Origin: an uncultured Clostridia bacterium
Lineage (GTDB): Bacteria; Bacillota; Clostridia; TANB77; CAG-465
Reading direction: 5' to 3'
Length of the DNA stretch: 64,000 bases
NCBI GenBank assembly: GCA_947628005.1
Contig: CANQYI010000004.1
Span: 8,188-72,187 of the forward strand
In this document: positions 9,642-56,164 of the stretch, one piece after another
How the letters are laid out: every line of letters begins with the position of its first letter
Position numbering within the stretch: position 1 is the first letter of the stretch
Notes under the pieces: model-generated
What the model was told of the DNA's origin: nothing
Seen by the model: the letters and a program-made list of their open reading frames with translations, nothing else
Database searches by the model: none
Translations under genes and position numbers: made by a program

Positions 9642-11531
9642 TTGATAGAAAAAGAAAACATAAAAGAGAATAATAATTATAGAAGAAAAAGAGTTATAAA
9701 AAAAGATAATTATGAAGAACGTAATGAAAAAGTTAAGATTGATGTAAAAAATAAATTAAATAAGAGAAGTTCTTTGAAGGTAGAGTTTTCTAATATTGAT
9801 GAGAGTAATAATGGAAAACAAGAAAGAAGATCAAGAGGTAATATTTTTACAAAATCAAAACTAAAAATTATACCTTTAGGAGGTATGAATGAAATAGGAA
9901 AAAATATGACTGTAATAGAGTATGAAAATGATATTATAGTTGTAGATTGTGGTCTAGCATTTCCTGAAGATGAAATGTTAGGGGTAGATTTGGTTATACC
10001 AGATTTTACATATTTAGAAAAAAATAAAGATAAGGTAAAAGCACTAGTTATTACTCATGGTCATGAAGATCATATAGGTGCGATACCATATTTTTTGAAG
10101 AAGATAAATGTTCCGATTTATGGAACAAAATTAACTTTAGGACTTATTAAGGCAAAACTTCAAGAACATAATTTAGACAAAAGTACAAAATTAAAATGTG
10201 TAGCTCCAAGAGATGTAGTGTCTATTGGAAAATTTAAAGTTGAATTTGTAAAGGTAATTCATTCTATAGCAGATTCAGTTGCACTTGCTATAACTACACC
10301 AGTTGGAGTAGTTTTTCATACAGGAGATTTTAAAATAGATTATACTCCTATAGATTCTATACCAATGGACTTTGAGAGAATTTGTGAAATTGGTAAAAAA
10401 GGTGTACTACTTATGATGTCTGATAGTACTAATGTCCAAAGACCAGGACACACTATGTCAGAAAGAAGTGTAGGACGTGAATTTGATAAAATATTTACTA
10501 ACTGTACGAAAAGAATAATAGTTGCAACATTTGCATCTAATATTCACAGAATGCAACAAATAATTAATTCAGCCGTAAAGTTTAAAAGAAAAGTTGCAGT
10601 AGTTGGACGTAGTATGCTAAATGTTATGCAGGTAGCTTCTGAGCTTGGTTATCTTAGTGCTCCAGAGGGAACACTAATAGATATTGATAAAATAGGAATT
10701 TATAATCCAGAACAACTTGTAATAATTACAACAGGTTCTCAAGGTGAACCAATGTCTGCACTTTCGCGTATGGCAATGGGTGAACACAAAAAGGTACAAA
10801 TTACACCTGAAGACCTTATTATATTTTCATCATCTCCAATTCCAGGAAACGAAAAATCAATTGGTAGAGTAATGGATGAACTTGAAAGAATGGGCGCAGA
10901 GGTAATATATAATCAATTAGCTGATGTACACGTTTCAGGTCACGCTTGTCAAGAAGAATTAAAATTAATGTTGTCTTTAATAAAGCCAAAATATTTTATG
11001 CCAGTTCATGGTGAATATAGATTTTTAAAACATCATGGCGAACTTGCAGTAAGTGTTGGAGTTAAAAAGGAAAATATTTTCTTAAATGAAAATGGTAGAA
11101 TATTAGAAATAGGAGAAGACGGCGCAAAATTATCTACACAAGTCCAATCAGGAATTGTTTTAGTTGACGGATTAGGAGTAGGAGATGTAGGTAATATCGT
11201 ACTTCATGATAGACAACTTTTATCTGAAAATGGAATGATAATTGTTGTAATTGGTCTTGATAGAAAAACTGCTAAAGTTGTTTCTGGACCAGATATTGTT
11301 ACACGTGGATTTGTATATGTAAGAGAAAGTGAAGGCTTAATGGAAGAAATAAAAGATATTGCTAGAAAAGAATTACAAAAATGTGAAGATCAAAGTGTAA
11401 GAGAGTGGTCTATTATAAAAACAAATGTAAAAGAGGCATTAATGAAATACATATATACTAAGACTAAAAGACAACCAATGGTACTACCAATACTTATGGA
11501 TATAGATTTAGAAAAAAATATTAACAATTAA
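9642..11531 (+). CDS. rnj: Ribonuclease J with an N-terminal basic extension of about 75 aa
   Basis: TTG start 6 nt after AAGGAGG. Metallo-beta-lactamase HGHEDHIGA, beta-CASP region and C-terminal domain are present. The conserved core begins at LKIIPLGGMNEIGKNM. Confidence 0.93.
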   Translation: MIEKENIKENNNYRRKRVIKKDNYEERNEKVKIDVKNKLNKRSSLKVEFSNIDESNNGKQERRSRGNIFTKSKLKIIPLGGMNEIGKNMTVIEYENDIIVVDCGLAFPEDEMLGVDLVIPDFTYLEKNKDKVKALVITHGHEDHIGAIPYFLKKINVPIYGTKLTLGLIKAKLQEHNLDKSTKLKCVAPRDVVSIGKFKVEFVKVIHSIADSVALAITTPVGVVFHTGDFKIDYTPIDSIPMDFERICEIGKKGVLLMMSDSTNVQRPGHTMSERSVGREFDKIFTNCTKRIIVATFASNIHRMQQIINSAVKFKRKVAVVGRSMLNVMQVASELGYLSAPEGTLIDIDKIGIYNPEQLVIITTGSQGEPMSALSRMAMGEHKKVQITPEDLIIFSSSPIPGNEKSIGRVMDELERMGAEVIYNQLADVHVSGHACQEELKLMLSLIKPKYFMPVHGEYRFLKHHGELAVSVGVKKENIFLNENGRILEIGEDGAKLSTQVQSGIVLVDGLGVGDVGNIVLHDRQLLSENGMIIVVIGLDRKTAKVVSGPDIVTRGFVYVRESEGLMEEIKDIARKELQKCEDQSVREWSIIKTNVKEALMKYIYTKTKRQPMVLPILMDIDLEKNINN

Positions 11532-11545
11532 GGAGGAAAAGTAAA

Positions 11546-13240
11546 GTGGATGAGGCTTTAAAGGAAAAATATGAAAAACTTAGTAATTTAATATTTCCAG
11601 ATGTAACCAAAACAGTTGAAGACTTGGAAAAAAGATATCCAAAAAGAGACTTGCCAGAGAATGCAATGGTTACAAGATTTGCACCATCTCCAACTGGATT
11701 TTTACACACAGGTGCTCTGTTTACAACTCTTATAGATAAACTTTTAGCTTTAAAGAGTAATGGAACATATTATCTAAGAATTGAAGATACAGATTCAAAG
11801 CGTGAAGTTAGTGGTAGTGTTAAATTATTTACTGAAGAATTAGAGAAGTTTGGACTTGCTCCAAAAGAAGGAGTTATATCAGAGACAGAAGAAGTTGGAG
11901 ATTATGGACCATATCGCCAAAGCAAAAGAGCAGACATATATAGAATATGTGCAAAGTATTTAGTACAAAAAGGTCTTGCGTATCCATGCTTTTGTACTCA
12001 AGAAATGATAGATGCTACAAGGAAAGCTCAAGAAGCCAGTAAAATTGTCCCAGGCTATTATGGAGTATATGCAAAATGTAGAAATATATCAGTTGATGAA
12101 TCTATTAAAAGAGTAGAGAATGGGGAAGAATTTATTTTACGTTTTAGAAGTCAAGGCTCACATCTACAAAAAACTTCTTTTATAGATGGTGGTAGAGGAA
12201 AAATAGAACTTGCTCAAAACGATCAAGACATTGTTTTGATAAAAAAAGATGGGCTTCCAACTTATCACTTTGCACATGTGGTAGACGATCATTTTATGCG
12301 TACTACACATGTTGTTAGAGGAGAAGAATGGATACCATCAACACCAATACACTTAGAATTATTTGAAGCAATGGGATTTGAAAAAGTAACTTATGTTCAC
12401 GTTCCACTCATAATGGTTAAAGAGGGAGAAAGTAAACGTAAATTAAGTAAAAGAAAAGATAAAGAAGCAGCTGTATCATACTTTTTAAAAGCTGGCTATG
12501 AAAAAGATGCAATGATAGAATATCTAATGACTTTAGCAAATTCAGATTTTGAATCTTGGAGATCTAAAAATAGGGAACAAGATGTTTTTGATTTCAATTT
12601 TAAAATAGATAGGATGAGTTCATCTGGTTCATTACTAGATATTCCAAAATTAAATGATATTTCTAAAGAAATAATAGCAAAAATGGACAGCAAGACACTT
12701 TTAGAAAAAGTTACTTCATGGGCTAAAGAGTATGATAATGATTTGCTAAATATATTAAATAGAGATTTAGATTATACAAAGAAAATATTTGCTTTAGAAA
12801 GAGATAATGCTAAAAAGGTACGTAAAGATATATATAAGTGGGAAGATATATTAAAGACATTCTTTTATTTCTTTAATGATTTATTTAAAAATGATATTGA
12901 AGAAAATGGAAGAGAATATGAAAATTTACTAAAAGAAAATACAAAATTAAATGTTGGTATTATAAATAAGGTATTAAGTGCTTATTTATCTTCTTACAGT
13001 GAAAATCATTCTAAAGAAGAATGGTTTGAAAATTTAAAAAATACGGCTTCAAATCTTGGATTTTGTACTGACATGAAAGAATATAAGAAAAATCCAGATA
13101 ATTATATAGGTAGCACTGCTGATTTTGCTTCAATTATAAGAATTGCTATTACCAACAGAAAAAATAGTCCTGATATTTATGAAATTATGCAAATCTTAGG
13201 AAAAGATGAAGTTAAAAATAGATTAAATATAACATTATAA
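11546..13240 (+). CDS. gltX: Glutamate--tRNA ligase (long form, 564 aa)
   Basis: GTG start after AGGAGG. Class I motifs PSPTGFLHTG (HIGH) and KLSKRK (KMSKS), plus RIEDTD. Confidence 0.9.
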   Translation: MDEALKEKYEKLSNLIFPDVTKTVEDLEKRYPKRDLPENAMVTRFAPSPTGFLHTGALFTTLIDKLLALKSNGTYYLRIEDTDSKREVSGSVKLFTEELEKFGLAPKEGVISETEEVGDYGPYRQSKRADIYRICAKYLVQKGLAYPCFCTQEMIDATRKAQEASKIVPGYYGVYAKCRNISVDESIKRVENGEEFILRFRSQGSHLQKTSFIDGGRGKIELAQNDQDIVLIKKDGLPTYHFAHVVDDHFMRTTHVVRGEEWIPSTPIHLELFEAMGFEKVTYVHVPLIMVKEGESKRKLSKRKDKEAAVSYFLKAGYEKDAMIEYLMTLANSDFESWRSKNREQDVFDFNFKIDRMSSSGSLLDIPKLNDISKEIIAKMDSKTLLEKVTSWAKEYDNDLLNILNRDLDYTKKIFALERDNAKKVRKDIYKWEDILKTFFYFFNDLFKNDIEENGREYENLLKENTKLNVGIINKVLSAYLSSYSENHSKEEWFENLKNTASNLGFCTDMKEYKKNPDNYIGSTADFASIIRIAITNRKNSPDIYEIMQILGKDEVKNRLNITL

Positions 13241-13252
13241 TGTAAATTTTAA

Positions 13253-13285
13253 ATAATAGGATAGCTAGTATCCTATTATTTTTTA
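13253..13285 (+). terminator. Rho-independent terminator
   Basis: ataataggata / tatcctattat perfect 11-bp stem, gctag loop, T-run. Confidence 0.65.
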
Positions 13286-13367
13286 TATTTAGAATTATTT
13301 TTAATATTTTCCTTTAAAAATAATTTTTATTATGATAAAATTATTATATATGTTTAGAGGAGAAAGT

Positions 13368-14742: not shown

Positions 14743-15336
14743 ATGTATGACGCAATTAATTCAAAATACACATATAAAAATAGTAATGTTCTAATAAATA
14801 AGTTAGATATAAGAGATGAAGAAAAATTAAAAGAGTACGAAAAAAAGATTGTAGCATTAAAACTAATTTCTATAAGAAAGCTAGCAAAGGACGTATTTGG
14901 AAATACTTACAATGAAAAAAGATTAAAATTTATACATGAACATCTATTTTTTGAAGTATATGATTTTGCAGGAAAGTATAGAGAGGAAAATATTACGAAA
15001 GAAAATTTTAAGTTTTCAGATTATATTTATATACATGATAACATTAAAGCTATAATGAATAAAATTAATTTGGAAGACTTAAGGAAATTAAACTTTGATG
15101 AATTAGTAGTTTTTATATCAAGTATTATGACTGACTTAAATGTATTACATGCTTTTCGTGAGGGAAATGGTAGAACAACACGTGAGTTTATAAGAGAATT
15201 GCTAGAAGATTTAGGTTATGAAATCAATTTTTTCAAAATAGATTATGATGATATAGTTATGGTTAGTAAACTTGCTGTTATAGATGAGACAGAACAAATA
15301 AAATTACTAAAAAAATCTATTAAAAAAATTAATTAA
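14743..15336 (+). CDS. Fic-domain protein (putative adenylyltransferase toxin, class I)
   Basis: Canonical Fic motif HAFREGNGRTTR (HxFx(D/E)GNGRxxR). 197 aa single-domain size. No internal inhibitory SxxxE(G/N) helix seen. Confidence 0.9.
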   Translation: MYDAINSKYTYKNSNVLINKLDIRDEEKLKEYEKKIVALKLISIRKLAKDVFGNTYNEKRLKFIHEHLFFEVYDFAGKYREENITKENFKFSDYIYIHDNIKAIMNKINLEDLRKLNFDELVVFISSIMTDLNVLHAFREGNGRTTREFIRELLEDLGYEINFFKIDYDDIVMVSKLAVIDETEQIKLLKKSIKKIN

Positions 15337-34350: not shown

Positions 34351-35352
34351 ATGGCAATTACATTTGAAAGTTATGAAAGAAGAATAGACCAAATTAAGCC
34401 TGTGATGAAAGAATATAATATTAAAGATTTTGAAGATGCTTTAGAAATATGTAAAAAGAAAGGTTTTAACCCTTATGATATAGTAAAAGGTGTACAACCA
34501 ATATGTTTTGAAAATGCGTGTTGGGCATATACTTTAGGTGCTGCAATAGCAATAAAACAAGGATGCAAGAAAGCATCTGATGCTGCAAAGGCAATAGGAA
34601 TTGGCCTACAAGCATTTTGTATTCCAGGTTCAGTAGCTGATGTAAGAAAAGTTGGACTTGGACATGGAAATTTAGGAGCAATGCTACTTTCAGAAGAGAC
34701 AAAATGTTTTGCATTTTTGGCTGGACATGAATCATTTGCAGCTGCTGAAGGTGCAATTGGTATAGCTAAATCTGCAAATAAAGTTAGAAAAGAACCATTA
34801 AGAGTAATATTAAATGGATTAGGAAAAGATGCAGCACAAATAATATCTAGAATAAATGGATTTACATACGTAAAAACAGATTTTGATTTCTTCAAAAATG
34901 AAGTAAAAGTTTTAGAAGAAATAAAATATTCAGATGGACCAAGATCTTTAGTTAGATGCTATGGAGCAAATGATGTTAGAGAAGGCGTTGCAATAATGCA
35001 CTTAGAAGGAGTAGATGTATCAATTACAGGTAACTCTACAAATCCAACTAGATTTCAACATCCAGTTGCAGGTACTTACAAGAAAGAATGTATAGAACAA
35101 GGTAAAAAATATTTTTCAGTGGCTTCTGGTGGTGGAACAGGTAGAACATTACATCCAGATAATATGGCTGCAGGACCAGCATCTTATGGTATGACAGATA
35201 CAATGGGAAGAATGCACTCAGATGCACAATTTGCAGGATCATCTTCAGTACCAGCTCATGTTGAAATGATGGGACTTATTGGTATGGGAAATAATCCAAT
35301 GGTTGGTGCAACTGTTGCGGTTGCTGTTGCAGTAGAAGAAGCTATGAAATAA
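34351..35352 (+). CDS. GGGtGRT protein (uncharacterised conserved family)
   Basis: The literal signature SGGGTGRTLHP is present, followed by GMTDTMGRMHSD. Confidence 0.85.
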   Translation: MAITFESYERRIDQIKPVMKEYNIKDFEDALEICKKKGFNPYDIVKGVQPICFENACWAYTLGAAIAIKQGCKKASDAAKAIGIGLQAFCIPGSVADVRKVGLGHGNLGAMLLSEETKCFAFLAGHESFAAAEGAIGIAKSANKVRKEPLRVILNGLGKDAAQIISRINGFTYVKTDFDFFKNEVKVLEEIKYSDGPRSLVRCYGANDVREGVAIMHLEGVDVSITGNSTNPTRFQHPVAGTYKKECIEQGKKYFSVASGGGTGRTLHPDNMAAGPASYGMTDTMGRMHSDAQFAGSSSVPAHVEMMGLIGMGNNPMVGATVAVAVAVEEAMK

Positions 35353-44128: not shown

Positions 44129-44773
44129 ATGAGAATACGATATGATAAAAAAGCTTTAGAACAAATACAATCTTTTGATAGATATTTAGATAGTAAAGAA
44201 AAATTAGAAGAAGTACTTAATAAAAATAAATGCAATTTATATATTGAAATAGGAATGGGTAAGGGAGAATTTATAACCAAAATGGCAATGCAAAATCCCG
44301 ATGTATTATTTATCGGTATAGAAGTATGCATACCCGTACTGGCACTTGCAATAAGGAAACTAAATAGATTTGAAGAAAGCCAAAATATAAAACTTCAAAA
44401 TCTATATTTAATGTCATTTGATGCAATAAATATTGATGAAATATTTGGAAATAATAAGGTAGATAGAATATATTTAAATTTTAGTGATCCGTGGCCTAAA
44501 AAACGTCATACTAAAAGAAGATTAACTTATAAAACTTTTTTGGCTAAATATGATAAAATAATGAAAGATACTACAGTAGTCGAATTTAAGACAGATAATA
44601 GAAAATTATTTGAATATAGTTTAGTTAGTATACAAAACTATGGATTTGAGTTCTTAGAAGTAAATTTAGATTTGCATAAAGATGATGTAGAAAATATTCA
44701 AACTGAATATGAAGAAAAATTTTCTAAACTCGGACCAATATATAAATTAGTATTTAAAAGAAAAACAGAATAA
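44129..44773 (+). CDS. trmB: tRNA (guanine46-N7)-methyltransferase
   Basis: IEIGMGKGEF SAM motif and NFSDPWPKKRHTKRRL. Confidence 0.93.
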   Translation: MRIRYDKKALEQIQSFDRYLDSKEKLEEVLNKNKCNLYIEIGMGKGEFITKMAMQNPDVLFIGIEVCIPVLALAIRKLNRFEESQNIKLQNLYLMSFDAINIDEIFGNNKVDRIYLNFSDPWPKKRHTKRRLTYKTFLAKYDKIMKDTTVVEFKTDNRKLFEYSLVSIQNYGFEFLEVNLDLHKDDVENIQTEYEEKFSKLGPIYKLVFKRKTE

Positions 44774-44803
44774 GAATTTTTTTACCAAAATATGCACAAA
44801 ATA

Positions 44804-44832
44804 TTGACAAATAATAAAATATATATTAAAAT
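44804..44832 (+). promoter_or_regulatory. tRNA operon promoter TTGACA-17-TAAAAT
   Basis: TTGACA at 44804-44809, 17-nt spacer, TAAAAT at 44827-44832, about 19 nt upstream of tRNA-His. Confidence 0.55.
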
Positions 44833-44850
44833 GTATAGGCAAGCGAAAGT

Positions 44851-44928
44851 GGTGGATATAGCGCAGTTGGTTAGAGCGCCAGTTTGTGGCACTGGAGGTC
44901 ATGGGTTCAACTCCCATTATCCACCCCA
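44851..44928 (+). tRNA. tRNA-His (GTG) with encoded G-1 and CCA
   Basis: Acceptor gtggata/tatccac with G-1 (44851) opposite C73. Anticodon stem ccagt/actgg with loop ttGTGgc. T-arm atggg-ttcaact-cccat. CCA at 44926-44928. Confidence 0.9.
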
Positions 44929-44950
44929 CTATATATTTTAATACACATAT

Positions 44951-45026
44951 TGGGGTATAGCCAAGTGGTAAGGCACCAGACTTTGACTCTGGCATTTCGT
45001 TGGTTCGAATCCAGCTACCCCAGCCA
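44951..45026 (+). tRNA. tRNA-Gln (TTG) with encoded CCA
   Basis: Acceptor tggggta/tacccca. Anticodon stem ccaga/tctgg with loop ctTTGac. T-loop ttcgaat. CCA at 45024-45026. Confidence 0.9.
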
Positions 45027-45033
45027 TGAAATC

Positions 45034-45064
45034 AATCAATCAGTTGAACTGGTTGATTTTTTTG
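45034..45064 (+). terminator. Rho-independent terminator of the tRNA pair
   Basis: aatcaatcag / ctggttgatt stem (one G:U) plus T7. Confidence 0.6.
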
Positions 45065-45130
45065 TTATTGAAATCAAATATAAAAGAATTAAAAAAATTT
45101 AAATTTATACAATATATTGTTAATAACACT

Positions 45131-45164
45131 AAAGTGCAAAATTAAAGTGCAAAAATTGCACTTT
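45131..45164. promoter_or_regulatory. Operator-like repeats AAAGTGCAA (direct) plus a perfect 9-3-9 palindrome
   Basis: AAAGTGCAA at 45131-45139 and 45144-45152, and the inverted TTGCACTTT at 45156-45164. The 21-nt AAAGTGCAAaaaTTGCACTTT abuts the -35 of the downstream promoter. Confidence 0.5.
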
Positions 45165-45169
45165 AGATA

Positions 45170-45198
45170 TTGTGAAATTATTAAATTAATGTTATAAT
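45170..45198 (+). promoter_or_regulatory. Putative promoter TTGTGA-17-(TG)TTATAAT for the Fic-wHTH gene
   Basis: TTGTGA at 45170-45175 and TGTTATAAT at 45190-45198. Confidence 0.45.
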
Positions 45199-45227
45199 AT
45201 AAGTGTAGTTAAAGGAGATACTTATAT

Positions 45228-46280
45228 ATGGATAAAGATGAAAATTGGAATGTGGAATTGTCTGGATACATTAAACAAGGTGAACCAAGAAGAAGTGAAA
45301 AAGCCAAAAATTGGGAAACTGCTATTGGACTTCAAGCGGTTGATGGATTAAGACCTTCAAAATATTTAATAAAAACTGCTAAAGAGCATATCGAAGGTAA
45401 TATTAATATAGATGAAGTAAAAAAAAGAATAGATGAGTATTATGAAATAGAAAATAATGAAAAATTAGATACTGATAGTGAAGAAGCAGATAAAGTTTCA
45501 ACTAGAATAACAGAAATTTTAAGTGAAAATAGTTTTAATTTTAATATCTTTGAATTAATTAATATTCATTCTAGACTTTTTAAAGGAATTTTTGAAGAAG
45601 CAGGGAAAATTAGAAATTATAATTTTACAAAGAAAGAGTGGATTTTAAATGAAGACACTGTAACATATTCTTCTTTTGAAATTATAAAAGATACATTAGA
45701 ATATGATTTAGAACAAGAAAGAAACTTTTCATATAAAGATTTATCTTTGGAAGAATCAATAAAACATATTTCAAAATTTACTTCTAATATTTGGCAGGTA
45801 CATCCTTTTTGTGAAGGAAATACTAGAACAACAGCGGTATTTATAATAAAATATTTAAGAACATTTGGATTTAACGTAAATGATGACGTGTTTGCTAAAA
45901 ATTCTTGGTATTTTAGAAATGCACTTGTTAGAGCAAACTATAAAAATTTTGAAAAAAATATTTTTGAAGATACATCTTTTTTAGAAAAATTTTTCTTTAA
46001 TTTATTAACTGATGCTAATTATGAACTAAAAAATAGATATACTCATATAGATTATAGGCAAGAAGAAAATGATATAAAATTAAATGATAAAAGATACACT
46101 TTAGAAGAACAAGCAATTATAAATATAATTAAAGATAACCAATCAGTTAAACAGGAAGAAATTGCTAAACTTATAAACAAGTCTCTTAGAACAACAAAAT
46201 CTATAATGAAACAAATGCAGGAAAAAAGTATTATTAAAAGAAGTAATGGAAAAAGAAATGGCAATTGGATAATATTGTAG
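45228..46280 (+). CDS. Fic-domain protein with degenerate motif, N-terminal inhibitory-helix-like segment and C-terminal winged-HTH
   Basis: Fic core reads HPFCEGNTRTTA (canonical HxFx(D/E)GNGRxxR, so G8 becomes T and R12 becomes A). N-terminal TAIGLQAVDGLRPS resembles the VbhA-type (S/T)xxxE(G/N) helix with D in place of E. C-terminal EEQAIINIIKDNQSVKQEEIAKLINKSLRTTKSIMKQMQEKSIIKRSNGKRNGNWIIL looks like a MarR/wHTH module. Confidence 0.85.
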   Translation: MDKDENWNVELSGYIKQGEPRRSEKAKNWETAIGLQAVDGLRPSKYLIKTAKEHIEGNINIDEVKKRIDEYYEIENNEKLDTDSEEADKVSTRITEILSENSFNFNIFELINIHSRLFKGIFEEAGKIRNYNFTKKEWILNEDTVTYSSFEIIKDTLEYDLEQERNFSYKDLSLEESIKHISKFTSNIWQVHPFCEGNTRTTAVFIIKYLRTFGFNVNDDVFAKNSWYFRNALVRANYKNFEKNIFEDTSFLEKFFFNLLTDANYELKNRYTHIDYRQEENDIKLNDKRYTLEEQAIINIIKDNQSVKQEEIAKLINKSLRTTKSIMKQMQEKSIIKRSNGKRNGNWIIL

Positions 46281-46437
46281 AATTATCAAAAAATTGAGTA
46301 TAATTTGACAGTTTTAAAAGTTTAATAAATGTATCACAATATATATTTTTTCTAGTAATTTACCACATTTTTTTACTAAAAAGTATTGAATATTTTTCGC
46401 TTTTAGTATAACATAAAATGTATATGGGGGTTTTTAT

Positions 46438-49400
46438 ATGAAAGATAATACTAAAAAGAAGAATCGTAAGATTATTAAAGGTATTTCTCTTATAGTTTTA
46501 ATTATTACTATAGTAGTTACTTTAATATTGTTATCAGTTGTTTTACTTACTATGGATAAAAATGATCCTAGAAAGGGAGCAACAGAAAACGTATTTAAAA
46601 GCGACTTTAAAACATTACAAGATCAGCTTGCTATGAAAAAGGTTGAAGTTATAGAGAAAGATAAAAATGCTGATGTAAATGTTTCAATTACATATGACAA
46701 GGATGAAGAACTTAAGGAATGGATAAGTTCAATTGATACTAGTATTTTGAATGGAATAGTAGAAATATGTAATGGAGAACTTGTATTTGTAGATAATAAT
46801 ATGAGTGACGAAGAGAAAATATGGGCAGAGGAAATGGCTGCTGTTATAGACTCTTGTGAAAGCTATTCAAAGAAAAGAGGAGGTTACTACTTTAAAGGAA
46901 AAGTAGGAACTCAAGAAATAGCAAATTATTCTTGGACAAATAGCGATGTAACAGTTGAAGTTGATACCTCAAAAGCAGAAGATATGAAAAATAAATATGA
47001 TTCTTATACATATAGTATAGATTCTGGTGATTATCAAAAATATAATAATCCATTTAAAGTTTCAACAGATAATAATACTACAAAAATATTTAAAATAAAA
47101 GGTGTTGCAACTTCATCAAAAGATTCTAAAGAATCAATTGATTTTGTTGAAGATTATGTAGTAAAAATAGATAAAATTGCTCCTACTGCACCAGATATAA
47201 CTAGAACAATAGTAGATGGTAAAACTCAAATTACTTTATCTGGAGCAAAAGATGCAGATTCAGGTGTAAAACTTTTACAGTATAGTTTGGATGGTGGTAA
47301 TTCATGGAATGATTATTCAAGTCCAATTCAAACAAGTACAAATGTTACACAAGTATTTTCAAGAGCTTGGGACAATGCAGGAAATGTTACTCCAGAAAAA
47401 GAATGGAAGAAAATAAATATAAAAGTTTCTCAGTTAAGTGATATAGTTGTTACATCACCTTCAACAGGAATATATAAAGCAGGTACAAGAATTGTATTTG
47501 TAGCTACATTCCAAGGTGGTGCACCTGCAGCTGTGCCTTCACTTGATTTGACATTTGGTCAAGGTAATGTAAAAGGTGCTGATATAGTAAACAGATCAAC
47601 AAATTCCATAACTTACAGTTATGTAATAGAAGATGGCGATAACGGAAAATTAGAGCTTGCAAATGGCAGATATAATGGACAAGATCAAAAACTTAATGGT
47701 TCAGAAGTAATAGCCGATACTATAAAACCTAAAATTACATATACAGGAGCAAATTATAACGGAACAACACAAAAAGCTATTATTACATCTATAAATGATC
47801 AAGTAAACATTCTATTTAAGGCAAGTGACTTAAATATAAATGAATCTGTTATGATAGCTAGAGATATAAAGGTATTACTTGATGGAACTGAAATAGACAG
47901 TTTATCTAGAGAGCTTGTAACTTCATCACCTTCAGGAGAAGATATAAATTTCAAATTAGTTTTGTCAGACTTTAGAATGGAAAAAGGTAATGTATCACTT
48001 ATTATTCCAGCAGATAAAGTAGATGATAAAGCATTTAATTATAATGACGAAATAAGATTAGATACAAATTATTATATTGAATGTAGAATAGATACAACAC
48101 CACCAGAAGTAGATTATGTAGAAATGTATAGTGATAATGAGTTCGGTGGAAAAAAATATGCTAAAAATGGGAATACAATAAATTTGAGAGTAAGATTTAA
48201 CGAAAATTTATCAGTTGCACCAACTATAACAATTGCAGGTAGAACAGCAACACTTAAATCAAGTGCTCCAAATAGTACAGAATATGAAGGTTATATATAT
48301 ATATCAGAAAGTGAAGTTGCACTTGGCGAAGCTTGGCTTGGTTATACTATTTCTGACTATAAAGATTTTATAGGAAATCCAGGTAAAACAGTAGAAAAAG
48401 AATCAACAACTACAAAGCCAACATATATGGATGATACTGTATTATATGATAGAACAGAGCCAAACATAAACTTTAATCCTACATATAGAAAGAAAGATAA
48501 AACTACAATAAATGATATAAACTCAACAAATGGATATTGTTATGATGCAGTATTTTCACCCAATGCAACAGATAACTTAAGTGGTATATTATCAGTAGCT
48601 TATAGATGGAATACTACTGATGCTTGGACAAAAACAGTACAACCATCTCCATCTGATACGGGTACTTATACTTTATATGCAGACATAACAGATAATTCAG
48701 GTAATAAAATTACCAAAACACATACAATAAAAGTTGATTGGGATTCACCAATAGTTCCAGAAATTAAACTTGAAGGAACACTTGGAACAAATGGATGGTA
48801 TACATCTGAAGTAGTACCAAAACTTGTTTCTACTCCAACAGATGCTTTATCAGGATTTGATTATGGAACATTTAGTCCTGAAAAATTAAGTACATCTGGA
48901 ACATTTACATATACATGTTATGATAAAGTAGGTAATCCTTCAACAGCATCAAAGGATGTTAAAGTTGATGCTGTTGAACCAAAAATATTGTTTAGTGTAT
49001 TTAGCTATGAAAATAGTAATAAGTCATCATCTCCACTTGTAAGTAAGGAAGTAGGAAATAATGGAGTTGTAGAATCTTATGAAGTTGCTAAAGTTCCAAG
49101 TACTTCTTCAAAAGATTGGGTAAAGTTTCCTGTTATGGTAGATGCAAAAGTACAAAATTCAATACCTTCTGGAATAACTTCTGTTACTTACTATGTAAAT
49201 GAAGAAGAAAATTATGGCTCTACAAGTGATAATTTTCCTACATCTGAAACATTATCTCCTTCCACTGTAACATGGAATAATACTATGAAAATTCCTACAG
49301 GAGGAAGAAGAATATTAAGACTAAAAATTGCTACTGGTTCAGGTAAAGAATTTACTTATGATGTAGAAGTTAATATAGATGTAACTGCTCCAAGTATAGA

Positions 49401-50679
49401 AACTCAAACTACATTAAAAAGTAAATCTGGAACAACGTTAGATGGAAGTAAAACAAATGGATATGCTTATAATGCTACAGTAGGAGTTACTGCTACTGAT
49501 AACGAAAGTGGAGTAGCTGAGAGATATTATGAGTGGTCTGATATAAATTCTCCTAAAGCATGGACTAGTTTTACTTCAACATCGCTTTCAACTTTAGCTA
49601 GTTTTTCTACTGGTACAAAATACTTACATTTAAAAGTTGTTGATAATGCAGGTAATGAAAGAGTTACATATGTTACTGTAAACTTAGACAGAACTGCACC
49701 AACACTTACTTTTAGTACTTCAGATTATAATGCATCAGGTGGTTCGATTGATATATCAAAAACGGGTAACTATTCACATCATTCAAATGTAACAATATCT
49801 TGTAAAGATACAAATTCGGGTGTAGATACTAAACAATATAAATGGGGTTCTTCATCAAGTTATTCAAATTTGCCAACTACTTCATCTGTTAAATCTCCTG
49901 GAACTACAGGAACACATACTTTGTATGCTAGAATAACTGATAAAGTAGGTAACTACGTTGAAAATAATATATCTAGGAAGATAGATGTAACTCCGCCTAG
50001 CAAGGCTTCAAATTTTGCTGTAAATCATTCTTTTTATAAAGGAAATAGTCCTGAAAATTCTAGTGTGACATTTACGGTAGTTGGTGCTACAGATTCACAA
50101 AGTGGTATATCAACTTACAATTTTTATAGGACTTCTTCTATTGTAGCAGGTAGTGGACCACAACTAGGGAAAAGTAACAATTGGTATTATGCATATCCTG
50201 ATGATAGTAAATATACATTGGAACAATCTTCCTCAGGTTCATCAGTAACTTTTCGTGGCTCAAAATCAAAGTTAGGTAAATTTTATTCGGTTTATATAAA
50301 AATATATGATAAAGTTGGAAATAGCCTAAAAATAGATAAAGGAGCATCAAGAAATTTTTATGAACCATGTAATCATTATTTTGGTGATTATTATAATTTT
50401 CCAACCAGTACTACTAATCCTAATACGAACTACGTTGTTGAAAAATACTATAGTGAGGGTTGGTCATGGAGATGTACGTCAGATAATCAATGCCATGTTG
50501 CTAATATAAATAACCAGGTTGTTTTAAGAAGATGTATGAGATGCAAAATGCCAGCTGCATATTTATATTGGCTAGGAAATGAACCTAAAAATGTAGTTGG
50601 AGTTAATTTCTTCCATCCATCGGGTTCTAGTTTACCAACTTATAAAACCAATTCATATAATAATACTTGTTATGATTAA
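46438..50679 (+). CDS. 1413-aa N-terminally anchored extracellular protein with repeated Ig-like modules and a Cys-rich C-terminal domain
   Basis: GGGGG RBS. N-terminus KKKNRKIIKG-ISLIVLIITIVVTLILL is prepilin-like but lacks Glu+5. At least 6 modules of about 100 aa share [AT]xDxxSG[VI]...Y...(W)...D.[AV]GN...[VI]D.T.P (for example AKDADSGVKLLQYSLDGGNSW, ATDNLSGILSVAYRW, ATDNESGVAERYYEW, CKDTNSGVDTKQYKW, ATDSQSGISTYNFY). The last ~110 aa contain 7 Cys. No LPXTG, SLH or CWB2 motif seen. Confidence 0.8.
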   Translation: MKDNTKKKNRKIIKGISLIVLIITIVVTLILLSVVLLTMDKNDPRKGATENVFKSDFKTLQDQLAMKKVEVIEKDKNADVNVSITYDKDEELKEWISSIDTSILNGIVEICNGELVFVDNNMSDEEKIWAEEMAAVIDSCESYSKKRGGYYFKGKVGTQEIANYSWTNSDVTVEVDTSKAEDMKNKYDSYTYSIDSGDYQKYNNPFKVSTDNNTTKIFKIKGVATSSKDSKESIDFVEDYVVKIDKIAPTAPDITRTIVDGKTQITLSGAKDADSGVKLLQYSLDGGNSWNDYSSPIQTSTNVTQVFSRAWDNAGNVTPEKEWKKINIKVSQLSDIVVTSPSTGIYKAGTRIVFVATFQGGAPAAVPSLDLTFGQGNVKGADIVNRSTNSITYSYVIEDGDNGKLELANGRYNGQDQKLNGSEVIADTIKPKITYTGANYNGTTQKAIITSINDQVNILFKASDLNINESVMIARDIKVLLDGTEIDSLSRELVTSSPSGEDINFKLVLSDFRMEKGNVSLIIPADKVDDKAFNYNDEIRLDTNYYIECRIDTTPPEVDYVEMYSDNEFGGKKYAKNGNTINLRVRFNENLSVAPTITIAGRTATLKSSAPNSTEYEGYIYISESEVALGEAWLGYTISDYKDFIGNPGKTVEKESTTTKPTYMDDTVLYDRTEPNINFNPTYRKKDKTTINDINSTNGYCYDAVFSPNATDNLSGILSVAYRWNTTDAWTKTVQPSPSDTGTYTLYADITDNSGNKITKTHTIKVDWDSPIVPEIKLEGTLGTNGWYTSEVVPKLVSTPTDALSGFDYGTFSPEKLSTSGTFTYTCYDKVGNPSTASKDVKVDAVEPKILFSVFSYENSNKSSSPLVSKEVGNNGVVESYEVAKVPSTSSKDWVKFPVMVDAKVQNSIPSGITSVTYYVNEEENYGSTSDNFPTSETLSPSTVTWNNTMKIPTGGRRILRLKIATGSGKEFTYDVEVNIDVTAPSIETQTTLKSKSGTTLDGSKTNGYAYNATVGVTATDNESGVAERYYEWSDINSPKAWTSFTSTSLSTLASFSTGTKYLHLKVVDNAGNERVTYVTVNLDRTAPTLTFSTSDYNASGGSIDISKTGNYSHHSNVTISCKDTNSGVDTKQYKWGSSSSYSNLPTTSSVKSPGTTGTHTLYARITDKVGNYVENNISRKIDVTPPSKASNFAVNHSFYKGNSPENSSVTFTVVGATDSQSGISTYNFYRTSSIVAGSGPQLGKSNNWYYAYPDDSKYTLEQSSSGSSVTFRGSKSKLGKFYSVYIKIYDKVGNSLKIDKGASRNFYEPCNHYFGDYYNFPTSTTNPNTNYVVEKYYSEGWSWRCTSDNQCHVANINNQVVLRRCMRCKMPAAYLYWLGNEPKNVVGVNFFHPSGSSLPTYKTNSYNNTCYD

Positions 50680-50693
50680 TTAGGAGAAGATAA

Positions 50694-52190
50694 ATGAAAG
50701 TTAATATTTTAATACAAGAAAATAATAATAACACTTTAATAGAAAAGATTGAAAAGTGTTTTAGTAATAAACCAAAAAAAGTTTATATAATATCTGGTGA
50801 AGTGAAGGAAACAGGATTAAAGCTTATTGAAGAAGAAATGATAGATTCAAAAGCTAAAATGTTTTTCGCACTCGGAATTGATAAAAAAAATACAGTTAGA
50901 AGTATGTTAGAAATGATGTTAAGTTATACTAATGATGTATATATATATTCAAATAATTTAGATATTGAATTTGAAGGTAGCATAATTATGTTTGAATATG
51001 CAAATGAAGTCGTTATGTATAACTTCGCATCTGGTATATCTGAGGGAAGTCTTAGGGATAATATCAATGTTTATTTAGAAATCTTATATGATTTAACACA
51101 GAAAGATCAAAAAGATGATTATAAAGAGCTTATAAAAAATATTATTTCTAAGCTTCAAAAAGATATATTTAAAAAGATTGAAAAATCTGATATTGATGAA
51201 CTTGTAGAAAGTAAAGAAATCTTTTCTACAAAGCAATATAGTCATACTGTTAAGAGTATATCTGAATTACTTGGAAAATCTAATAAACCAGCTACAACTG
51301 AAGATAAAGTAATTGATGATGATGCTTTAGTAAGAGATATTCCAAAGGTAGATTTATCTGATGTTGATATAGATTTTGATTTTTCTGATGTTGAGGATGA
51401 AATAAAAATAGATGATGAACCATCAAGTAAAAATTTAACTAAAGAAAAATCAGATGACGTTGAAATTGATGATGAACAAATAAAACAATATGATAAAGAT
51501 GCAAATAAATTGCTTAAAGATTTTGAGTATAATGAAGATTATATAGATAAAGATAATGAATTATACGATGAAAGTTTAGAAAATTCTGAGTTTGATGAAA
51601 ATGATACACTTGATATAGAAAATTTACTATTTTCAAAGGCAGATGTAAAGTTAAACATGAATAAGGCTAAAGCATCAAAAAAAGATGAAAGTAAAAATTT
51701 AGATGATGAAGATTTAGTTAAAGTAAAAAAAGTAAATCTTAATAATGTTACAAATTTGATATTTGAATTGCCTTCACGTCCACAAAAAGAACAAGATACA
51801 TCTGTTATAAAGATTCCAAATTATATTAAACAAATGATTCCTGAATTCTTTGGATTTGGTGATGATGATTGTAAGAATGTTAAAATAGGAACAAGTATTT
51901 ATAAAACTAGAGATGTAAATTTAGAGATAATTGATGCTCAAGAGAATCAAAAGTATAATGATAGAGAAGGCAAACTTATGCAAAAGCAGGGTCAGACATA
52001 CCTTACATTCTCAACCGAAAAGTTAAAGCAAATAAATTATGAAGAAAATGATATAGCAAGAATTATAAAACTTTCAGATGATACTTATCATATAGAAATA
52101 ATATCAAAAAAATTACAAGAATATAAACTTTGGTCAAAGATTTGTAATCAAAAATTTAAATCTAGTCAAAGGAAATATGGAATGATGTAA
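50694..52190 (+). CDS. Acidic 498-aa protein: PLD/NgoFVII-like N-domain without HKD residues, acidic linker, B3/AbrB-like C-domain (by-eye inference)
   Basis: AGGAG RBS, 14 nt after the giant gene. The N-domain pattern KKVYIISGEVKETGLKLIEE...FFALGIDKKNTVRSMLEMM...FEGSIIMFEY...VVMYNFASGISEGSL follows the spacing of PLD-fold nuclease domains, but H and K are replaced (FEGS). The C-terminal VIKIPNYIKQMIPEFFG...TYLTFSTEKLKQINYEENDIARIIKLSDDTYHIEII resembles a B3-type pseudobarrel. Confidence 0.5.
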   Translation: MKVNILIQENNNNTLIEKIEKCFSNKPKKVYIISGEVKETGLKLIEEEMIDSKAKMFFALGIDKKNTVRSMLEMMLSYTNDVYIYSNNLDIEFEGSIIMFEYANEVVMYNFASGISEGSLRDNINVYLEILYDLTQKDQKDDYKELIKNIISKLQKDIFKKIEKSDIDELVESKEIFSTKQYSHTVKSISELLGKSNKPATTEDKVIDDDALVRDIPKVDLSDVDIDFDFSDVEDEIKIDDEPSSKNLTKEKSDDVEIDDEQIKQYDKDANKLLKDFEYNEDYIDKDNELYDESLENSEFDENDTLDIENLLFSKADVKLNMNKAKASKKDESKNLDDEDLVKVKKVNLNNVTNLIFELPSRPQKEQDTSVIKIPNYIKQMIPEFFGFGDDDCKNVKIGTSIYKTRDVNLEIIDAQENQKYNDREGKLMQKQGQTYLTFSTEKLKQINYEENDIARIIKLSDDTYHIEIISKKLQEYKLWSKICNQKFKSSQRKYGMM

Positions 52191-52210
52191 AAATTTTAAT
52201 TATTGGTTAA

Positions 52211-52237
52211 AAAAAGTGGATTTTTCCACTTTTTTTA
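52211..52237 (+). terminator. Rho-independent terminator
   Basis: aaaaagtgg / ccacttttt stem plus T-run. Confidence 0.6.
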
Positions 52238-52260
52238 ATGCCCAAATTGTGCAAAAAAGC

Positions 52261-52289
52261 TTGAAAAATGGATTATTTTATAATATAAT
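52261..52289 (+). promoter_or_regulatory. smc promoter TTGAAA-17-TATAAT
   Basis: TTGAAA at 52261-52266, 17-nt spacer, TATAAT at 52284-52289. Confidence 0.55.
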
Positions 52290-52313
52290 TTTTCTGTAGA
52301 GGAGAAAAAATAT

Positions 52314-55880: not shown

Positions 55881-55909
55881 TTGACTTATGTAAACAATTG
55901 TGGTATAAT
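55881..55909 (+). promoter_or_regulatory. Promoter TTGACT-17-(TGg)TATAAT
   Basis: TTGACT at 55881-55886, 17-nt spacer ending in TGG, TATAAT at 55904-55909. Confidence 0.6.
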
Positions 55910-55960
55910 ATATGAGCAGGTAAAAAGGAAGACTCTCTTTAACTATAAGGAGTGATAAAT

Positions 55961-56164
55961 ATGTATACAAAGTTAATGGGGGAAATAAAAAAATTAGAAA
56001 TTGCGTATCTTAAAAGCGAAGAGTTTGACTGCTCTAAGTTAAGAGAATACGCTAGACAATTAAATAAGGCTGATAGTTATTATCAGTTTAAGACAGAAGG
56101 CTCCGATGAGGAACTAGTTGATTCAGTTTACGAATTGCTAAAACGGCAATTTGGTCACCCATAA
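55961..56164 (+). CDS. Small hypothetical protein (67 aa), GC3-enriched
   Basis: ATG at 55961 lies 8 nt after AAGGAG. It has its own strong promoter and a perfect 12-bp terminator. Codons such as gcg, agc, gac, tgc, ggc, tcc, cgg, cac are atypical for the genome. No family recognised. Confidence 0.5.
   Translation: MYTKLMGEIKKLEIAYLKSEEFDCSKLREYARQLNKADSYYQFKTEGSDEELVDSVYELLKRQFGHP

Follow-up and report, generated by a model that had tools for sequence, protein, structure and literature searches.

A probable, catalytically dead descendant of BfiI-type restriction endonucleases upstream of smc in uncultured gut Clostridia

Genes between trmB and smc

We analyzed a 64-kb stretch of DNA from an uncultured Clostridia bacterium (contig CANQYI010000004.1, positions 8,188 to 72,187; hereafter the window, meaning the whole 64,000 nucleotides) and, within it, three plus-strand genes that lie between trmB, with its neighboring tRNA-His and tRNA-Gln genes, and smc. 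From 5' to 3', they encode a 350-aa Fic protein with a C-terminal winged helix-turn-helix (wHTH), a 1413-aa protein with immunoglobulin (Ig)-like repeats (P2), and a 498-aa protein (P3). The original prediction, made from the sequence letters, described the three as one accessory island beside a tRNA. The open reading frames (ORFs), tRNAs, promoters, and terminator it listed are all present (Table 1), the third gene does start 14 nt downstream of the second behind an AGGAG of its own, and we agree that this gene combination is not that of a described system.

The island itself does not stand up to comparison with related genomes. Loci were collected from one genome per species via a P3 alignment, yielding 69 species, all of them metagenome-assembled genomes of uncultured gut Clostridia (including Clostridium sp. 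CAG:465, CAG:921, and CAG:1219), and the proteins of the window were compared by tblastn with 76 related loci. Every one of the 69 species in this set, which was itself fetched through P3, has P3, while the Fic gene has no match at the locus in any of them and P2 is limited to the nearest relatives. Presence and absence across the locus, a comparison suggested with the island, varies for the Fic gene only, and no polymorphism of the block as a whole is found. We therefore read the interval, from sequence comparison, as a composite of three independent units with separate histories, and not as one system. Among these, P3 is the gene for which the data lead furthest, and it is described first.

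P3: structure, ancestry, and linkage to smc

P3 was modeled as a single chain using AlphaFold2 and an alignment of 32 sequences, and the model consists of two confidently predicted domains separated by an acidic, disordered linker (Table 1). A Foldseek search of this model against the PDB returns the restriction endonuclease BfiI as the first match (2c1l_A, E = 2.7e-11), with both domains aligned, followed by the phospholipase D (PLD) domain of SauUSI, the C-terminal domain of BfiI (3zi5_A), R.NgoAVII, and LlaJI.R1-N. Specifically, the C-domain of P3 matches the DNA-bound recognition domain of BfiI (3zi5_A) with E = 5e-8 and a TM score of 0.67. Further matches to the PLD fold include FAM83, Nuc, NucT, PLD3, Tdp1, TrmB, and TrmBL2. 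A catalytically dead PLD fold joined to a B3-like barrel is what had been proposed for this gene from its translation, and the model, the fold search, and the catalytic columns described below all bear this out.

At the sequence level, neither P3 nor the 32 members have a meaningful match in Pfam, NCBIfam, or PADLOC, and a P3 profile finds nothing among PDB sequences at E <= 10. The link between P3 and BfiI is made only via structure and intermediate sequences. The latter come from an exhaustive profile search, which recovers ~400-aa relatives of P3 (E = 1e-16 to 1e-7) that carry an intact TFHPK...GSSNLT and match the Pfam families PLDc_2, RE_NgoFVII, and BfiI_DBD. One relative of this active type (P0327) adjoins two N6/N4 DNA methyltransferases, and another with the HxK motif aligns with BfiI (PDB) as far as the C-terminal tail, which reads KRFGYI in BfiI and RKYGMM in P3. 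These intermediates, with their intact HxK motif, tie P3 by sequence homology to real restriction enzymes.

The catalytic residues of BfiI are H105, K107, N125, and E136 (PMC4267654). When the 32 P3 members are aligned to the HxK relatives, the catalytic His, Lys, and Glu are each found in 0 of 32; their places are taken by D/N/V/S/E/K/T for the His, N/S for the Lys, and S/N/T/A/V/L/M for the Glu. The column equivalent to N125 is variable, with N in 17/32. An intermediate group (P0272 and P0273; 511-538 aa, with acidic linkers) has FQPK at the site, i.e. the His is lost and the Lys is kept, and the His is also lost in P0306 (575 aa). Separately, D63-K64-K65 (within GIDKKNT) was considered as a degenerate HxK and rejected, since the alignment puts the HxK site at residues 94-96; GIDKKNT is a separate motif, common to the active enzymes.

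No methyltransferase is found beside P3 in the P3 loci inspected. P3 thus lacks two of the marks that define a restriction enzyme, catalytic residues and a methyltransferase partner in a mobile locus. We consider it very likely that P3 is an unannotated, catalytically dead descendant of BfiI/NgoFVII-type restriction endonucleases. It defines a protein family without a Pfam or NCBIfam model, represented by at least 352 full-length homologs of ~500 aa (counted as protein clusters), and our literature searches found no paper on a dead PLD/B3 protein linked to SMC.

The linker contains two motifs, IPKxDLSD at approximately residues 216-222 and TLDIxxLLFSKADxKL at residues 304-320 (nt 51603-51653). 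Linker residues D307, L312, F313, and L320 are invariant in the P3 family, and a core motif, (A/T)(I/L)D(I/V)E.(M/L)LF, is still kept in homologs with 25% identity, followed by a basic/hydrophobic stretch. The linker motif also bears a loose resemblance to beta-clamp-binding peptides (QLxLF).

The distribution of P3 is that of a core gene. No P3 relatives were found in plasmids or phages, a fold search of the BFVD viral structures with P3 returns nothing, and the divergence of P3 from the window copy follows that of SMC (Pearson r = 0.86, 44 species). Because P3 is universal in the 69 species, tracks SMC, and usually lies upstream of smc, it belongs to the core flank; judging from these comparisons, it is vertically inherited with that flank and is not part of an island.

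The gene order around P3 points in the same direction. There are 63 species informative for the P3-smc linkage (69 minus 6 with too little flank, <5 kb), and in 49 of these P3 is followed by an smc gene of the same orientation. In the ten most divergent species, where P3 is 35-47% and SMC ~50% identical, the gap between the two genes is 9-20 nt, and no other neighbor from the window or the reference loci is retained; one flank of the pair carries genes for a P-type ATPase, YgjV, and a rhodanese, and the other carries trmFO, holA, and gpr. Two distant homologs extend this pattern: a canonical SMC N-terminus starts 25 nt downstream of P0272 (locus L088), and in L094-L096 the gene for P0273, which is 25% identical to P3, is preceded by a PRC-barrel gene and followed, after 180 nt, by smc (45% identical) and then metG. 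Gene order thus indicates that P3 is preferentially kept immediately upstream of smc, in a pairing that is not obligate.

Of 18 P3-smc intergenic regions, 16-17 contain the -10 region of smc, TAATATAAT, and a motif search of these regions returns only this element and no candidate P3 site. Searches of Pfam, NCBIfam, and PDB sequences reveal no match of P3 to known SMC partners (ParB, ScpA, ScpB, and MatP-type). In the loci of the FQPK-type homologs, we also observe a PRC-barrel protein of ~295 aa encoded upstream of the P3-like gene and smc (L088, 1917-2807; L094, 7108-7989; L095, 1563-2444). Its gene directly adjoins the P3-like gene in L094 and L095, and a 41-codon ORF lies between them in L088.

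The Fic cassette, P2, and the surrounding locus

The Fic protein scores 41 bits against the Pfam Fic model (cut-off 24), and its wHTH spans residues 295-337. It matches the PADLOC model PDC-S72 over its full length (E = 1.2e-123, residues 12-340 of 350), with which it shares a Fic core followed by a C-terminal wHTH; SoFic, VbhT, and the VbhA-like stretch, which is weak at the N-terminus of the protein, are poorer matches. PDC families are untested candidate defense families (PMC11514479), and our searches for PDC-S72 in the literature did not find a mention of it. The cassette is a new member of this known candidate family. The original prediction of a Fic domain and a C-terminal wHTH is confirmed by Pfam; the active-site motif that it called degenerate is another matter. 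This motif, HPFCEGNTRTTA at residue 192, differs from the canonical AMPylation motif of Fic proteins, HxFx(D/E)GNGRxxR, by a change from G to T and of the final R to A, and it is the same in 112 of the 120 homologs in which it was counted. Given this identity among homologs, HPFCEGNTRTTA is a conserved variant specific to the family and no sign of decay, and the chemistry that it supports is probably under selection.

More than 8000 homologs of the Fic protein were scored, and the best are 73-99% identical, closer than SMC is to its homolog in the nearest species (75%). At the DNA level, the cassette is 86.7% identical to L082 over 45132-46284 and 77.8% identical to L085 from 45144 to just beyond the stop codon, and blastn finds no DNA homology to either locus outside this stretch. 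Relatives are carried by plasmids of Treponema, Bacteroides, Paraclostridium, and Campylobacter and by phage-like contigs, and they are also found in unrelated chromosomal contexts. All contigs of the same species carry the gene, although these are few and come from one study. From the sequence, Fic is the sole accessory gene of the three, a single-gene cassette with an operator and promoter of its own that has landed after the tRNA terminator.

Regulation of the cassette is suggested by the perfect palindrome AAGTGCAA-N3-TTGCACTT just upstream of the -35 box. The pattern occurs once in the window, against 0.01 occurrences expected by chance, and its exact form precedes the Fic start codon by 66-84 bp in 6/6 other loci fetched (L082-L087), whatever their context. 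An extra direct half-site, at ~45130-45138 in the window, goes with the palindrome in the fetched copies. The palindrome is a probable operator for the protein's own wHTH, which in the simplest reading would repress its own promoter, and the Fic domain would modify a target as a toxin-like or defense effector. A conserved upstream palindrome of Fic-wHTH genes did not turn up in our literature searches. The cassette indicates that a widespread Fic-wHTH family moves as a minimal operator-promoter-gene unit, with a regulation that is easy to test. The window also holds a second, shorter Fic gene (14743-15336, plus strand, 197 aa), with the canonical HAFREGNGRTTR and no wHTH; its neighbors are a gene of the phosphodiesterase family and one for a YkuD L,D-transpeptidase.

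P2 is, as the original prediction had it, a membrane-anchored Ig-repeat protein. A single hydrophobic helix lies near the N-terminus, and the protein gives five OmpL47-type matches in NCBIfam (E = 2e-35) and one Big_13 match, domains it has in common with Ig-like repeat adhesins of these types, and contains six Ig-like DxSG modules. A pilin-like leader and the helix together read KGISLIVLIITIVV (residues ~15-40, nt 46480-46560), and the consensus of the leader is basic residues followed by G-I-S-L-I-V-L-x-I-T-I-I-V. This leader is found nearly unchanged on many unrelated proteins of the lineage, mostly LRR_5 and also Ig-like, in L008, L019, L029, L036, L038, L043, L051, L053, L056, L062, L070, L074, L091, and L092, and JGI labels some of these relatives PulG or PilE (pseudopilins). 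The K-G-I-S-L-I-V-L and hydrophobic helix resemble the G/FTLIE leader of type IV prepilins, from which P2 differs in that its mature part is a 1.4-kaa repeat protein and position +5 is Val, versus the Glu conserved in prepilins. NCBIfam gives no prepilin-type match to P2 at E <= 0.1. The leader resembles a class III (prepilin-type) signal in which Val stands at the Glu+5 position.

The C-terminal region of P2 follows the pattern C-x-H...W-x-C...H...C-x-x-C-x-x-P-x-A-Y-L, which it has in common with L008 and L006, and may be a zinc-binding or disulfide-rich module; a single-sequence AlphaFold2 model of this part is uninformative (pLDDT 32). Among the species loci, a full-length P2 is found only in L008, from the nearest species, at the same position and with 43% identity (order trmB, tRNA-His, tRNA-Gln, P2, P3, smc), and in the close metagenome contigs L006 and L007 it is represented by two adjacent ORFs. 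Upstream of P2, the block at 46379-46428 is the sole non-coding stretch between tRNA-Gln and P2 that is conserved between the window and L008, and we take it as evidence that P2 has a promoter-like signal of its own. Overall, P2 is a fast-evolving, variable surface protein in the trmB-to-P3 interval of this species and its nearest relatives, large but otherwise ordinary for such a protein.

The short junction between P2 and P3, across which no terminator is found, makes their cotranscription plausible in this genome, and no gap separates the two ORFs in L008, where they abut or overlap. This arrangement is seen only in the closest relatives. Other leader-bearing genes lie directly beside P3 in L043, L036, and the distant L091/L092; such genes occur at ~1 per 80 kb, however, and the 3-4 adjacencies to P3 in 69 species compare with ~1.7 expected by chance. 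The proteins concerned are also of different kinds (Ig-like or LRR_5) and lie on different sides of P3 (upstream or downstream). The co-occurrence of the two genes beyond this genome is confined to the closest relatives, and the gene-order data indicate that P2 and P3 are not a conserved pair.

Beyond these genes, the window is core chromosome throughout, with glycolysis genes, RNase J, gltX, ileS, the mraZ-dcw cluster, era, secG, RNase R, pyruvate:ferredoxin oxidoreductase, and comEC. Synteny also shows that the upstream block of rnr, a SpoIIM-like gene, and trmB is kept in many relatives, where the pair of tRNA-His and tRNA-Gln is also found 3' of trmB, sometimes in inverted orientation. The interval from trmB to P3 is a rearrangement hotspot (44774-50693, compared with L004, L011, L016, L021, L023, L029, L034, and L038). 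In other species it typically holds a PAP2 phosphatase gene and a formate-tetrahydrofolate ligase gene; most relatives have tRNA-Gln(CTG) within it as well, and all three are missing from this interval in the window. Neither the formate-tetrahydrofolate ligase nor the PAP2 gene has a match anywhere in the 64 kb.

The gap between P3 and smc is a second insertion hotspot, in which clades differ in small inserted genes of unknown function. For example, two small minus-strand ORFs (~118 and ~125 aa) are present in L001-L003, L024-L028, L030-L035, L060, L066-L067, and L076, a 279-aa minus-strand ORF with no Pfam match lies at 11562-12401 of L008, and L004 has an insertion at 11520-13313. Just 3' of smc, a 70-aa plus-strand ORF (55952-56164) with no family match is kept in L008 (41% identity) and is preceded by a strong promoter-like site of its own (55881-55909). 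Elsewhere in the window, amid cell-division genes and era, a plus-strand gene at 34351-35352 encodes a GGGtGRT-family protein of unknown function (PF14057, E = 5.5e-198).

Table 1. Features of the trmB-smc region, in coordinates of the window
Feature	Coordinates	Strand	Evidence and remarks
trmB	44129-44773	+	Pfam Methyltransf_4, E = 1e-40; core flank
tRNA promoter, TTGACA-17-TAAAAT	44804-44832	+	Promoter scan
tRNA-His(GTG)	44852-44928	+	ARAGORN, Rfam
tRNA-Gln(TTG)	44951-45026	+	ARAGORN, Rfam
tRNA terminator	45034-45058	+	Terminator scan
Fic cassette (operator-promoter-gene), 1.15 kb	45132-46284	+	blastn stretch common to copies elsewhere
Palindrome AAGTGCAA-N3-TTGCACTT	45145-45163		Perfect; just upstream of -35 box
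Fic promoter, TTGTGA-17-TATAAT with TG extension	45170-45198	+	Scan, 10/12 matches; directly 3' of palindrome
Fic-wHTH gene, 350 aa	45228-46280	+	Pfam Fic 3.5e-10; HTH_24 1.3e-5
Promoter-like block upstream of P2, AAAAGTATTGAA...TTTAGTATA.CATAA..TGTATAT	46379-46428	+	Comparison with L008
P2, 1413 aa	46438-50679	+	NCBIfam, Pfam, hydropathy
P2 C-terminal Cys/His-rich region, residues 1311-1411	50368-50670	+	Cys positions
P2-P3 junction, 14 nt, no terminator	50680-50693	+	AGGAG 8 nt before ATG at 50694
P3, 498 aa, isoelectric point (pI) 4.7	50694-52190	+	ORF
P3 N-domain, PLD-fold pseudo-nuclease, residues 1-178	50694-51227	+	AlphaFold2, predicted local distance difference test (pLDDT) ~90
P3 acidic disordered linker, residues 179-349, pI 4.25	51228-51740	+	pLDDT <50, charge counts
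P3 C-domain, B3-like pseudobarrel, residues 350-498, pI 8.7	51741-52190 (stop included)	+	pLDDT ~90; ends RKYGMM
Terminator-like stable hairpin with A-tract and T-tract, P3-smc gap	52203-52245	+	RNA fold
smc promoter, TTGAAA-17-TATAAT	52261-52289	+	Scan, 11/12 matches
smc, 1185 aa	52314-55871	+	Pfam SMC_N, SMC_hinge

Proposed role of P3 and comparison with known systems

In our best explanation of the locus, to which we give a probability of about 0.7, P3 is a dead BfiI-type protein that is linked to smc within a composite interval. Its likely mode of action can be sketched from its relatives. In BfiI and R.NgoAVII, the PLD domains dimerize and each B3-like domain binds one DNA site, and the acidic linker of BfiI has been proposed as a DNA mimic (PMC4267654). 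By analogy, the N-domain of P3 is a probable dimerization module, and P3 would dimerize through its pseudo-PLD domains and present two B3-like domains, which would bind, and maybe bridge, DNA without cutting it. The conserved linker peptide would recruit a partner, and the linker may act as a DNA mimic as well. P3 may then act with SMC in chromosome organization or segregation.

Several observations weigh against this explanation. In ~14 species with at least 7 kb of flank, smc is absent downstream of P3, and a close metagenomic relative (L006) has ligA-mfd and no smc 3' of P3. Between the two genes, the window has a strong hairpin (-17.7 kcal/mol, z = -4.76; 0/200 shuffles fold as well) and a separate smc promoter, and cotranscription of P3 and smc is therefore not general. 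In a hand alignment via P0308, the S/T and L of GQ(S/T)YLTF fall at the positions of D282 and R284, so P3 appears to have lost the (D/E)xR motif through which the BfiI C-arm contacts bases; K427, K431, and Q434 are conserved in the C-domain of P3. Given this apparent loss, specific DNA recognition by P3 is putative. Dimerization and DNA binding are both extrapolated from homologs, the model being a single chain, and the evidence for a functional link between P3 and SMC is gene neighborhood, on which ground we hold such a link to be tentative, with the odds somewhat against it.

One reading takes P3 as a factor, specific to this lineage, that targets or loads SMC in a manner comparable to ParB or MatP and that arose from a domesticated restriction endonuclease in gut Clostridia with reduced genomes; the pseudo-PLD dimer would set two B3-like domains on specific chromosomal sites and leave the DNA uncut, and the (A/T)(I/L)D(I/V)E.(M/L)LF peptide would bring in SMC-ScpAB or some other protein of the replisome or of segregation. 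We regard this specific role as unlikely. Another takes P3 as an exapted, non-cutting DNA binder with a role in transcription, the nucleoid, or sporulation that does not involve SMC, and its place beside smc as inherited order of no functional significance. This reading, the main rival, is doubtful but deserves to be taken seriously: it accommodates the species in which P3 and smc are apart, L006 included, and the terminator and independent, conserved smc promoter that separate the genes in the window, and plant B3 domains are the DNA-binding domains of transcription factors (PMC3973309). It also accommodates two distant P3 homologs, one whose gene follows rnc, a radical SAM gene, and spoVS, and one flanked by surface-protein genes and mreBCD, with no smc. 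It has more trouble with the P3-smc adjacency itself, the sole one to survive across clades in which all other neighbors have changed, with a gap of 9-20 nt in the most divergent clade and a recurrence at 25% identity for P3 and 45% for SMC; such persistence exceeds what neutral synteny usually shows.

The remaining alternatives tie P3 to other neighbors or to defense. A pairing of P2 and P3 in this clade, with P3 regulating, or being coexpressed with, the surface protein, would fit the 14-nt gap in the window, the overlap in L008, and the leader proteins that adjoin P3 in L043, L036, and L091/L092; most species have the formate-tetrahydrofolate ligase gene and no surface protein upstream of P3, and with leader-gene adjacency near chance and the proteins differing in kind and side, we find this pairing very improbable. 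Less probable again is a single accessory island or new multi-gene system (e.g. for defense) made of Fic, P2, and P3 at tRNA-Gln. The tRNA, the close P2-P3 spacing without a terminator, the PADLOC candidate matched by Fic, and the restriction-enzyme fold of P3 all speak for it. Against it, Fic is in no relative and P3 in all, P2 and P3 are together only in the nearest relatives, and P3 is vertical, absent from the plasmids and phages searched, and without a PADLOC match. The signs of integration are likewise missing. As the original prediction itself had noted, there is no integrase ORF (in 45027-52313) and no copy of the tRNA-Gln 3' end; a repeat search of 44700-46500 returns only short AT-rich chance pairs. 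The G+C content stays at 21-32% with no step relative to the neighborhood, and each gene has a promoter-like signal of its own. It is just as hard to credit P3 as the inactive DNA-recognition subunit of a restriction-like machine with the adjacent SMC-family ATPase as its partner. R.NgoAVII, among the closest solved relatives, works only with an ATPase partner (PMC4267654), R.NgoAVII and R.CglI depending on their N or H ATPase subunits, and SMC-family complexes are reported to act in defense (PMC10586767); the neighbor of P3, however, is a canonical SMC of 1185 aa that has a hinge domain and is 45-75% identical across lineages, and not a variable defense ATPase. The surroundings of P3 contain no conserved methyltransferase or nuclease partner, P3 has no catalytic residues, and the locus is core.

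Restriction enzymes are usually viewed as mobile, dispensable defense genes. If our preferred explanation of P3 as a dead, smc-linked BfiI-type protein is true, a BfiI-type enzyme would have been disarmed, given an acidic linker, and fixed in every species sampled (at least 69 species and at least 352 protein clusters), beside the gene for the main chromosome-organizing ATPase. This would parallel the recruitment of B3 domains as plant transcription factors, and it makes P3 a testable candidate for the positioning of SMC in a large uncultured gut lineage.

Among known systems, BfiI, a metal-independent type IIS enzyme (PDB 2c1l and 3zi5), is the best two-domain fold match to P3. The two differ in that BfiI H105, K107, and E136 have no equivalents in 32/32 P3 members, and in that P3 has no nearby methyltransferase, is vertically inherited beside smc, and has seemingly lost the (D/E)xR motif. 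The P3 linker, ~170 residues long, disordered, and acidic, also contrasts with the short linkers of BfiI and R.NgoAVII (23 residues in R.NgoAVII; PMC4267654). The R subunits of R.NgoAVII and R.CglI (PDB 4rct) have the same pair of PLD and B3-like folds as P3, and R subunits of the R.NgoAVII type are built as a PLD-domain dimer with two flanking DNA-binding domains (PMC4267654). These are, by contrast, active nucleases (R.NgoAVII H104 and K106) with a dedicated ATPase subunit in restriction-modification loci, whereas P3 is inactive and sits beside a housekeeping SMC. Finally, the N-domain of P3 matches FAM83 DUF1669 and the archaeal proteins TrmB and TrmBL2 in structure (4urj, 5lzk, 5qhm, 2f5t, and 5box). 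These proteins have no sequence relationship to P3, TrmB carries a wHTH and FAM83 no partner domain, and none is linked to SMC, yet they provide a precedent for the PLD fold as a scaffold or oligomerization module, which in the case of TrmBL2 belongs to a chromatin protein.

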